DNA from: Escherichia coli
GTDB taxonomy: Bacteria; Pseudomonadota; Gammaproteobacteria; Enterobacterales; Enterobacteriaceae
DNA: 64,000 nt
NCBI RefSeq assembly: GCF_965641715.1
Contig: NZ_OZ282453.1
Reading direction: 5' to 3' (one strand)
A program made the position numbers. Shown here piece after piece: positions 38,801 through 41,800 of this stretch (positions within the stretch are counted from its first letter, which is position 1; each line of letters starts with the position of its first letter).

Positions 38801-41800
38801 CCCCCTAATTTCACCTTTATCCCGCCCCTTAGACAGAATGTTATAATCTGAACCCACAACAGCATTTGTACCGGAGCTGGTCCGTTGCAAAATGCTCACC
38901 GGGAGAATTCAGGTAATCCCTCTATCACACTCTGTACATATCACAGCCAAAGGACAGACCAGATTGAAGTGGTAAAACCGATCGTGCACACTACGCAGTC
39001 TCACAACTAACAAGAGGTTATTATCCTGATGGATCAGGTCGTTGTTTTTCAAAAGATGTTTGAGCAAGTGAGAAAAGAGCAAAACTTCTCCTGGTTTTAT
39101 TCAGAATTAAAACATCACCGTATTGCACATTACATTTATTATCTGGCTACGGATAACATCAGAATTATTACTCACGATGACACGGTTTTGTTATTAAGAG
39201 GAACCAGGAACCTGTTAAAAGTTAGTACGACCAAGAACCCTGCTAAAATAAAAGAGGCCGCATTGCTTCATATTTGCGGAAAATCTACATTTCGGGAATA
39301 CTGTTCAACACTGGCAGGCGCGGGCGTTTTCCGTTGGGTTACTGATGTTAATCATAACAAACGCAGTTACTACGCCATTGATAATACTCTTTTATATATT
39401 GAAGATGTAGAAAATAATAAACCATTAATCTAGCTAAAGTTGGATGCTTAAGAAGTGCTTCATAATTCAGTAAGGCATTAGCATAATGGGAATAAAAGTA
39501 CAGAGACTATCCCTATGGATGATAAATACTGTCCTTTTATTGCTACCCATAAATAATCACCAGGCCAATACTATCAAATTGATATTTGAAATGTGATCAC
39601 TTGACTTTCTATACGTTATTTTATAACGGTTAACATATTTATAAAACCAACGGGCGTGCCATACGCCCGTTTTAATACTTAACGCACATGTGTTTTGGTT
39701 TAGTCATCATCCAGTTATATGTATTTTAGCCAGGAACAGGTTAAACCTTTCCTATATAACTCAAAAATTGAAACCTTATTCTCATGTCATGCTTATATTC
39801 ATTATTATCGTTATATAAAAAGGCAACCATAATGTTTAGCAAATTGGCACAAAGTAGCATAAAGGCGATGTTTTAATTACAGGATGTTCAGTCATTTGAA
39901 TGTATAACATTATAGCTAAACAAATCTAAAACGAAGTGAATAATTTATTGTTTTCACTAAATCTCATTTTGTTTAACATCCATTGAGATTCCTTGCTTTA
40001 AATTTTGTTTTATATAAGCAATCGTTTTAATTAATTTATTTTTTGAAGGGGTAATATACTCATATGCAAAATAAAGAAATGAACATCCAAATGAACTATA
40101 TTAAATACCGTGGGATAAGACATAACAAATGAAGTGGGTAGTAATTGACACGGTCATTCAACCTACATGCGGCATATCTTTTTCAGCCATATGGGGTGAT
40201 ATAAAAATGATCATCTGGTATCAATCTACTATATTTCTTCCTCCTGGAAGTATATTTACACCGGTTAAGCCAGGTATTATCCTTAAGGATAAAGAATATC
40301 CTATTACTATTTATAACATTGCACCATTCAACAAGAATTTATGGAGTTTACTTAAAAGCAGTCAAGAGTGTCCTCCAGGAGAAAGCGAAATAACAAATAA
40401 ATGTTTGCATAAGAGTTGTATTATAAAAATATGCCCGTATGGGCTCAAGTAATGGGTTTTATATAAATATGCTCGATATGCTATTAATAATATCCACATA
40501 AATAAAACAACGGGCGTGTTATACGCCCGTTTCAATATTTAACACATGTAGTGATTACATATTCTTGATGATCGCATCACCAAACTCTGAACATTTCAGC
40601 AGTTTAGCGCCTTCCATCAGACGTTCGAAGTCATAGGTTACGGTCTTCGCATTGATTGCGCCTTCCATACCTTTAACAATCAGGTCAGCCGCTTCAGTCC
40701 AACCCATATGGCGTAACATCATCTCAGCAGAGAGAATAATAGAGCCTGGGTTAACTTTGTCCTGACCGGCATATTTCGGCGCAGTACCGTGGGTAGCTTC
40801 AAACAGGGCGCATTCGTCACCGATGTTTGCGCCAGGGGCGATACCGATACCGCCAACCTGCGCTGCCAGGGCGTCAGAAATGTAGTCACCGTTCAGGTTC
40901 ATACAGGCGATAACATCATATTCAGCCGGACGCAGCAGGATCTGTTGCAGGAATGCATCAGCAATCACGTCTTTAATGACGATCTCTTTGCCGGTGTTCG
41001 GATTTTTAACTTTCAGCCACGGGCCGCCGTCGATCAGTTCACCGCCAAACTCTTCACGCGCCAGCTGGTAGCCCCAGTCTTTAAACGCGCCTTCGGTGAA
41101 CTTCATGATGTTGCCTTTGTGCACCAGAGTCACAGAGTCACGATCGTTAGCAATTGCGTATTCGATCGCTGCACGAACCAGACGTTTGGTGCCTTCTTCC
41201 GAACACGGCTTAATACCGATACCACAATGTTCCGGGAAGCGAATTTTCTTCACACCCATCTCTTCACGCAGGAATTTAATCACTTTCTCGGCGTCGGCAG
41301 AGTCTGCTTTCCATTCGATACCCGCATAAATGTCTTCCGAGTTTTCACGGAAGATAACCATATCGGTCAGTTCAGGGTGTTTAACCGGGCTTGGAGTGCC
41401 CTGATAGTAACGTACCGGACGCAGGCAGATGTAGAGATCCAGTTCCTGGCGCAGGGCAACGTTCAGAGAGCGAATACCGCCACCAACAGGAGTGGTCAGC
41501 GGACCTTTAATGGCAACGCGATATTCACGAATCAGATCAAGGGTTTCAGCAGGCAGCCAGACGTCCTGACCATAAACCTGTGTGGATTTTTCACCGGTGT
41601 AAATTTCCATCCAGGAGATTTTACGCTCGCCTTTATAGGCTTTCTCGACTGCAGCGTCGACCACTTTCAGCATGGCTGGGGTTACATCTACACCGATTCC
41701 ATCACCTTCAATGTAAGGGATAATCGGATTTTCAGGAACGTTGAGTTTGCCGTTTTGCAGGGTGATCTTCTTGCCTTGTGCCGGAACAACTACTTTACTT

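Follow-up and report, generated by a model that had tools for sequence, protein, structure and literature searches.

In a 64-kb stretch of Escherichia coli DNA (contig NZ_OZ282453.1; hereafter the window, to the whole of which all positions refer), the gene iraM lies next to icd and is enclosed by the two copies, A and B, of a direct repeat of about 50 bp, whose origin is the subject of this report. When magnesium is limiting, IraM, an anti-adaptor of RssB, stabilises the stress sigma factor RpoS. Genes and repeat copies follow one another in the order bluF, bluR, ycgX, ymgL, copy A, ymgK, iraM, copy B, icd, and rluE, with icd and iraM convergent. The open reading frame (ORF) of iraM (40129..40452, plus strand) specifies 107 amino acids and belongs to the homolog family PF11183; icd (40555..41805, minus strand) is an intact ORF of 416 amino acids. 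Copy B (40502..40549; hairpin 40509-40531) starts 5 nt past the icd stop codon and is the predicted terminator shared by the two convergent genes. Copy A (39641..39691; hairpin 39649-39671) stands between ymgL and the iraM promoter region and would be the relic of a former icd terminator. Both copies were characterised by alignment, terminator scoring, and folding, and neither is assigned a strand.

The upstream or promoter region of iraM (39692..40128, plus strand) has 30% G+C and includes the small ORF ymgK (39832-39876, plus strand; 44/45 nt identical to K-12). The iraM segment likewise has 30% G+C, compared to 49% for the whole window. On the other side of copy A are flank A, defined as the 60 nt left of hairpin A (39589..39648, no strand assigned), the annotated small ORF ymgL (39486..39596, plus strand; 101/111 nt identical to K-12 ymgL), and ycgX, a DUF1398 gene supported by both ORF and annotation (39029..39433, plus strand). 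The first-pass annotation of this DNA had reported the repeat, described icd as intact and free of prophage, and proposed that the repeat is the scar of a site-specific insertion at the icd hotspot, which would make iraM part of an old integration remnant. Its coordinates and identity estimate for the repeat proved correct, and neither e14 nor any other prophage DNA was found next to icd in the window.

A direct repeat with a terminator-type hairpin

Gapped local alignment of copy A (39641-39691) with copy B (40502-40549) gave 44 identical columns out of 51; the remaining seven are 4 mismatches and 3 gap columns. This alignment scored 64, and 300 shuffles had a mean score of 19.6 and a maximum of 32. 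The ungapped core of the repeat is 43 nt long with 86% identity, and the two copies are in direct orientation with a start-to-start spacing of 860 bp. The hairpin AACGGGCGT-N5-ACGCCCGTT occurs at two sites only in the window, 39649-39671 and 40509-40531, against an expectation of 0.01. The likeness between the copies is not confined to the stem, and covers the loop and approximately 20 nt past the stem. Short G+C-rich hairpins followed by T runs are a common motif, to which both copies conform, and one could suppose that they are unrelated terminators made alike by chance or convergence. This supposition is ruled out by the alignment score, which is far beyond the shuffle maximum, by the likeness past the stem, and by a rare haplotype (described below) in which copy A continues into icd codons; we assign it a negligible likelihood.

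On the minus strand, both copies consist of a G+C-rich stem-loop and a T run, as expected of an intrinsic terminator, with nine pairs of which six are G-C; in copy B, the hairpin is followed on this strand by GTTTTATTTA. The fold energy is -16.8 to -18.2 kcal/mol for copy A and -19.8 kcal/mol for copy B (z = -3.9). Terminator activity is predicted from these features. Copy A scores as an intrinsic terminator in the orientation of icd, yet no minus-strand gene reads into it. In K-12, copy A (locus 3650-3672) is decaying, with a stem mismatch (GGCCGT/ACGTCC) at a place where the stem of the window copy (39649-39671) is perfect, and approximately 6 of 50 positions differ between the K-12 and window versions, far above the level in the surrounding genes.

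Neither copy reaches the Rfam threshold for any family. Only two copies were counted within the 64 kb, which is not the pattern of a dispersed repeat family (REP/BIME, ERIC, or MITE), and no terminal inverted repeats flank the iraM segment except the hairpin itself.

Elements at icd and the displaced copy

The icd gene is a long-known integration site whose 3' end is duplicated on integration, and few prophage hotspots are as often occupied (PMC3603311; PMC6379469). Four elements at this site were compared, namely e14 of K-12, an e14-like element (TUM9812), a lambdoid element of O157:H7 Xuzhou21, and a lambdoid element of the B2 strain UPEC129. Each of the four supplies icd with a substitute 3' end and a substitute hairpin. 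The homology between element and chromosome ends in every case at the left edge of the hairpin, which corresponds to approximately 40502-40505 of the window, and past this edge there are short tandem motifs of the integrase-arm type (TTTTGATAA three times in e14-type elements, TTTTGGGGAA three times in lambdoid elements), followed by int. The phage-borne hairpin can equal the chromosomal one, as in the O157 and UPEC129 phages; the e14 hairpin is a different, diverged sequence. In UPEC129, an intact 47-kb lambdoid prophage with sitABCD is bracketed by two identical hairpins, the first of which is beside icd with the phage arm repeats and the second beside a displaced 168-bp icd fragment and flank A. 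The same bracketing pattern is found for e14 in K-12, where the order of hairpins going away from icd is e14 hairpin, copy B, and copy A.

The att homology of e14 was taken from the K-12 sequence itself. Local alignment of K-12 attL with attR revealed a common block of 216 bp that extends from the hairpin to approximately 165 bp inside icd, and its equivalent in the window (40505..40720, minus strand) comprises the hairpin and the last ~165 bp of icd. By this comparison, the repeat around iraM is the far end (~50 bp) of the att homology block rather than the crossover core, and the core itself probably lies within the nearly identical icd-internal part of the block. The core is not present in both copies: copy A of the window breaks off short of the icd stop codon and no longer contains the core. 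Searches of the window by blastn and tblastn with the icd 3' block as query revealed no icd relic near copy A and no older scars elsewhere.

Evidence for what copy A once was comes from a survey of 5,426 complete E. coli genomes, on which all population counts in this report are based. In 19 of them (exemplified by loci L046-L052, such as L048 8256-16471), a divergent arrangement termed haplotype 3 has the order ycgX, ymgL, copy A, a YmgB/AriR-like gene, an iraM variant (79% nucleotide identity), a trkH-like gene, a gene for 455 amino acids, an e14-like arm, copy B, and icd. Copy A of this haplotype runs on as TAGCGTTAACATATTCTTGAT, and the sequence past copy B is TAGTGATTACATATTCTTGAT; in 18 of 21 positions, including an exact run of 13 nt, the extension of copy A matches the icd stop codon and the last four icd codons (Met-Asn-Lys-Ile). 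Because copy A runs here into the end of icd, it can be read as a displaced former icd terminator. A terminator and icd end without an attached icd gene have the appearance of an attR-type scar, and the icd coding relic of copy A has been lost in the haplotype of the window. Haplotype 3 is homologous to window positions 39735 to 40100, upstream of iraM, at 71-73%. From the common haplotypes it is diverged by 11-37% across the block from ycgX to iraM but by only ~3% in icd. A sub-variant of haplotype 3 (L045, L049-L051) is without ymgL, flank A, and copy A.

Flank A resembles the arm region of e14-type elements (TTTTGATA...TAAC[CG]GTTA[GA]CA...AAAAC), as judged by semi-global alignment against shuffles. 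The likeness is weak for the window version (z = 2.7-4.2; p = 0.003-0.02) and stronger for the version in B2 strains (z = 4.3-5.9; p <= 0.001). It hints, and does no more than hint, that copy A itself was delivered by a previous e14-like element of which ycgX is the remainder. The stretch made up of ymgL and flank A (39419-39640) is unusually variable; every pair compared differs there by 6-9% per 100 bp, whereas the differences in bluF, bluR, and ycgX amount to 0-5%. Free phage DNA carrying the junctions of flanks A and B was considered and rejected, as all matches in scans of viral contigs were near contig ends, with both junctions ~870 bp apart, and represent host flank inside prophage predictions.

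Distribution of iraM and the empty site

The full arrangement (ycgX, copy A, iraM, copy B, and icd) was found in 3,842 of the 5,426 genomes (71%). A further 1,130 (21%), mostly of B2 type and including the type strain DSM 30083, have an empty site in which a single hairpin joins flank A to the icd 3' end and exactly 860 bp are missing. The first-pass annotation had noted that an arrangement identical in all E. coli would speak against a scar, and these two classes show that it is not identical. Genomes outside these classes include those of O157:H7, where the query found a match in its icd part only. In O157:H7 Xuzhou21, the match extends only from icd to the hairpin, at one place, and a lambdoid prophage integrase gene is directly beside icd; O157:H7 appears from such matches to be without the common ycgX-iraM segment.

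The paper on IraL places iraM of K-12 within the e14 prophage and reports that CFT073 has no iraM (PMC4045071). Were iraM an e14 gene, the repeat would be the e14 att site, and the two do adjoin in K-12. The K-12 sequence has the order iraM, copy B, a 168-bp icd pseudogene fragment, and mcrA of e14, which confirms the duplicated icd fragment that the first pass had described and places iraM beyond this displaced fragment, outside e14 attR. Moreover, iraM is present in the window without e14 DNA, it occurs in 71% of genomes as against the 19% of strains reported for e14 (PMC6379469), and the e14 hairpin is, as described above, a diverged sequence. The K-12 order and the e14-free window rule out iraM as an e14 gene, a reading that retains virtually no credence, and iraM lies outside e14, contrary to the published statement. 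The reported absence of iraM from CFT073, a B2 strain, agrees with the survey.

The attL/attR duplication of e14 (Hill, Gray and Brody 1989, via PMC6379469 and PMC3603311) nevertheless has the same target as the repeat around iraM, namely the icd 3' end with the hairpin that follows it, and the same geometry and repeat orientation, with the element-borne copy beside icd and the displaced copy on the far side. It differs in that the window repeat is only ~50 bp long, has neither an icd coding part nor a crossover core, and brackets 810 bp without an integrase; the event at this place would be older than e14. No description of hairpin repeats around iraM was found in the literature searched, outside which much of the older literature falls, and the paper on IraL (PMC4045071) is silent on them too.

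The hairpin of the empty site has a left edge of flank-A type (ATAAAAAC) and copy-B states at every other diagnostic position. All versions of copy A read AATACT, and the single B2 copy reads AATATT, which is the copy-B state and is as expected for a recombinant between A and B. A few of the 1,130 empty-site genomes carry IS200C at the junction. In CE2050 (3600-4470), and also in CH4793, the insertion is exactly at the boundary of flank A and the hairpin, and the hairpin loop is inverted (GTATAACAC in place of GTGTTATAC), as expected from a template switch inside the palindrome.

Distances in the flank bear on how the empty site arose. From ycgX to flank A, iraM-less and iraM-plus strains differ by 2.6-3.5%, two iraM-plus strains differ by 2.9%, and haplotype 3 is ~19% away from both. 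The divergence profile reveals no deep split that would set the iraM-less haplotype apart. Despite its distance, haplotype 3 has copy A, iraM with its upstream region, and copy B in common with the window, and parsimony therefore puts the two-repeat state before all three haplotypes. Deletion between the two repeats is the most likely cause of the iraM-less, one-hairpin genomes, which make up about a fifth of the total, and we consider it probable that the B2-type empty site arose in this way.

The alternative is the opposite order of events, in which the single-hairpin state of B2 is ancestral and iraM entered the other lineages later by integration at icd. B2 is often placed among the early-branching groups of E. 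coli, the empty junction of flank A, hairpin, and icd 3' end is as clean as a pre-integration site is expected to be, and all seven empty-site genomes that were sampled have one YcgX allele in common, consistent with a single lineage. The copy-B-type hairpin of B2 is not decisive, since phage-borne hairpins can equal the chromosomal one, as in O157 and UPEC129. However, the flank distances group B2 with iraM-plus haplotype 1 (~3%) and leave haplotype 3 far outside, so an ancestral empty site would require two independent integrations of related elements or a replacement of the flank; the AATACT state common to all copy A versions and lacking in the B2 copy also disfavors it. An ancestral empty site is, on this balance, doubtful, and deletion between the repeats is preferred.

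Outgroup loci reached through BluR were limited to Citrobacter, Klebsiella, Kluyvera, and similar genera and do not inform the direction of the polymorphism. The clusters of IraM, YcgX, and BluR contained E. coli and Shigella names only. The pair bluF (ORF, 36593-37882, plus strand) and bluR (ORF, 38077-38808, plus strand) is kept in other Enterobacteriaceae, Citrobacter, Klebsiella, Kluyvera, and similar genera among them, but is unlinked there to icd, ycgX, and iraM within 7 kb. From these comparisons, the placement of the blu cluster beside icd seems specific to Escherichia.

Phage-type cargo and a possible layered record of integrations

The IraM family (PF11183) was found only in Escherichia. 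All divergent IraM paralogs (56-72% identity) are in lambdoid prophages, where they are located between Q (or stx) and nanS-p or lysis genes on the opposite strand. Homology between iraM and the phage paralogs at the DNA level is confined to 40114-40452, at 68-74% nucleotide identity. The phage paralog loci contain no hairpin of the type described here and share no DNA with the window outside the iraM coding sequence, which assigns the repeat to the icd site rather than to a cassette of the phage gene. Genes of the ycgX family (DUF1398) occupy another lambdoid slot, after Rz and before the terminase genes; the ycgX homolog of E. albertii is inside a prophage, between the lysis cassette and Nu1. 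At one locus (L029), a DUF1398 gene on the plus strand, lysis genes on the minus strand, and an iraM-like gene on the plus strand follow in the same order. The icd prophage of UPEC129 has plus-strand genes in both slots, an ompC-like gene and iss. In the window, iraM and ycgX are both on the plus strand and come in the corresponding order going away from icd, as expected for a lambdoid prophage integrated there.

Genes with their own promoter between Q and lysis or after Rz, such as stx-adjacent genes, bor/iss, and ompC-like genes, are known as lambdoid morons, and IraM paralogs and DUF1398 genes fill the same slots. Chromosomal iraM differs from them in its upstream region and in the absence of surrounding phage genes. 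Taken together, the sequence data suggest that iraM is a domesticated lambdoid-phage moron and the sole surviving gene of an integrated element; ycgX is probably the survivor of an even older element at icd. As to its regulation, iraM has been reported to be controlled by PhoP, and phoP and phoQ (46480-48611) are only ~6 kb from iraM (40129).

A comparable protein is IraL of CFT073 (PMC4045071), a homologous RssB anti-adaptor that is strain-variable and associated with islands or prophages. It differs from IraM in locus (a potB island), in sequence (58.9% amino-acid identity), and in regulation. The tail end of an unrelated lambdoid prophage occupies 53750-64000 of the window, directly after potB (52453-53316), the same island site at which iraL has been placed in CFT073 (PMC4045071). 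It includes genes for an 800-amino-acid fibre protein, a 1165-amino-acid J-like host-specificity protein, and tail assembly, and its tail genes are 85-95% identical to those of the UPEC129 icd prophage. No IraM paralog was found within the visible part of this prophage (53750-64000).

A mechanism for the origin of the iraM segment can be proposed from the behavior of elements that integrate at icd (e14, phage-21-type, and other lambdoid phages). Such elements carry a replacement icd 3' end with its terminator hairpin, so each integration would put a new hairpin beside icd and push the older icd 3' fragment and hairpin to the far side, leaving the element bracketed by direct repeats. Copy B would be the working terminator for icd and iraM, and copy A the previous icd terminator. 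The 810 bp between the copies, consisting of iraM and its promoter region, would be the residue after deletion of the integrase, the other genes, and the displaced icd fragment.

Five independent lines support the proposal that site-specific insertion at the icd hotspot left the repeat as its scar and that iraM is an old integration remnant. These are the hairpin copies carried by prophages, the bracketing of the UPEC129 prophage, the icd codons that follow copy A in haplotype 3, the occurrence of IraM paralogs as morons of lambdoid prophages, and the 1,130 genomes without the 860 bp. The locus has the marks expected of an integration scar, namely foreign-type DNA between direct repeats, homology of the repeat to the target, a single-copy site in relatives, and the same repeat produced by intact elements. 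We consider it likely, with good though not full confidence, that copies A and B are successive generations of the sequence downstream of icd and that the iraM segment is a decayed integrated element. The segment between them is a remnant, not an element.

A local event without a phage could be imagined instead, either tandem duplication of the icd terminator region followed by insertion of iraM or an illegitimate insertion that duplicated a target of ~50 bp. Hairpins can promote template switching, the segment is small (860 bp), and no integrase or att core is present between the window copies, all of which would suit such an event. A target duplication of ~50 bp is, to our knowledge, far longer than known transposases make, and the segment is without terminal inverted repeats. 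Integration explains the icd codons of haplotype 3 and the production of the same repeat by intact prophages, which a local event does not, and the relatives of IraM are all carried by phages. A local, phage-independent origin is therefore rated as highly improbable, and integration of an element at icd remains the preferred account.

Several observations weigh against this account. There are no integrase or element backbone genes between the window repeats, only iraM and the small ORF ymgK, and no integrase, att core, or icd coding relic survives beside copy A of the window, so that we infer the integration by comparison. Removal of the displaced icd fragment would need a deletion reaching almost exactly up to the hairpin. 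An intact progenitor element with this iraM allele was not found, the phage paralogs being no closer than the identities given above and sharing no flanking DNA, and flank B shows a weak likeness to phage arms (p = 0.008 to 0.3). With regard to the later loss of iraM, the longest perfect identity between A and B is 11-12 nt, a poor substrate for RecA-dependent recombination, and the flank distances from which the direction of the polymorphism is argued are open to distortion by recombination. The contexts of YcgX and IraM homologs comprised prophage paralogs, an unrelated locus of Escherichia sp. E10V10, and haplotype 3, with no ycgX-icd junction from another Escherichia species.

The locus has parallels in decayed prophage remnants with att-derived repeats at tRNA genes and other hotspots. 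In both, what is left of the cargo is enclosed by repeats of the target 3' end, and a single site is restored when the DNA between these repeats is deleted. The difference is that the target here is a protein-coding gene with its terminator and that the surviving repeat consists of the terminator part only. The case represents a known process and no new kind of system, with target-derived repeats marking the bounds of a decayed integrated element at a hotspot already on record. A broader reading, for and against which we see about equal grounds, is that the DNA downstream of icd is a layered record of integrations, each marked by a terminator copy (e14 hairpin, copy B, and copy A in K-12; copy B and copy A in the window), with iraM and ycgX as morons from two layers and with the repeats as the deletion substrate that removed iraM from lineages such as B2.

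What is added to the knowledge of this hotspot concerns where iraM came from, its mistaken assignment to e14, and its disappearance from B2 strains. Phages that target icd replace the icd terminator besides the last codons, which explains how terminator copies pile up at the hotspot and are able to mediate later deletions. The loss of iraM from about a fifth of genomes, with breakpoints in the terminator copies, would provide a structural reason for strain differences in the regulation of RpoS. If the layered record and the repeat-mediated deletion are true, they would rewire the control of RpoS stability between E. coli phylogroups.

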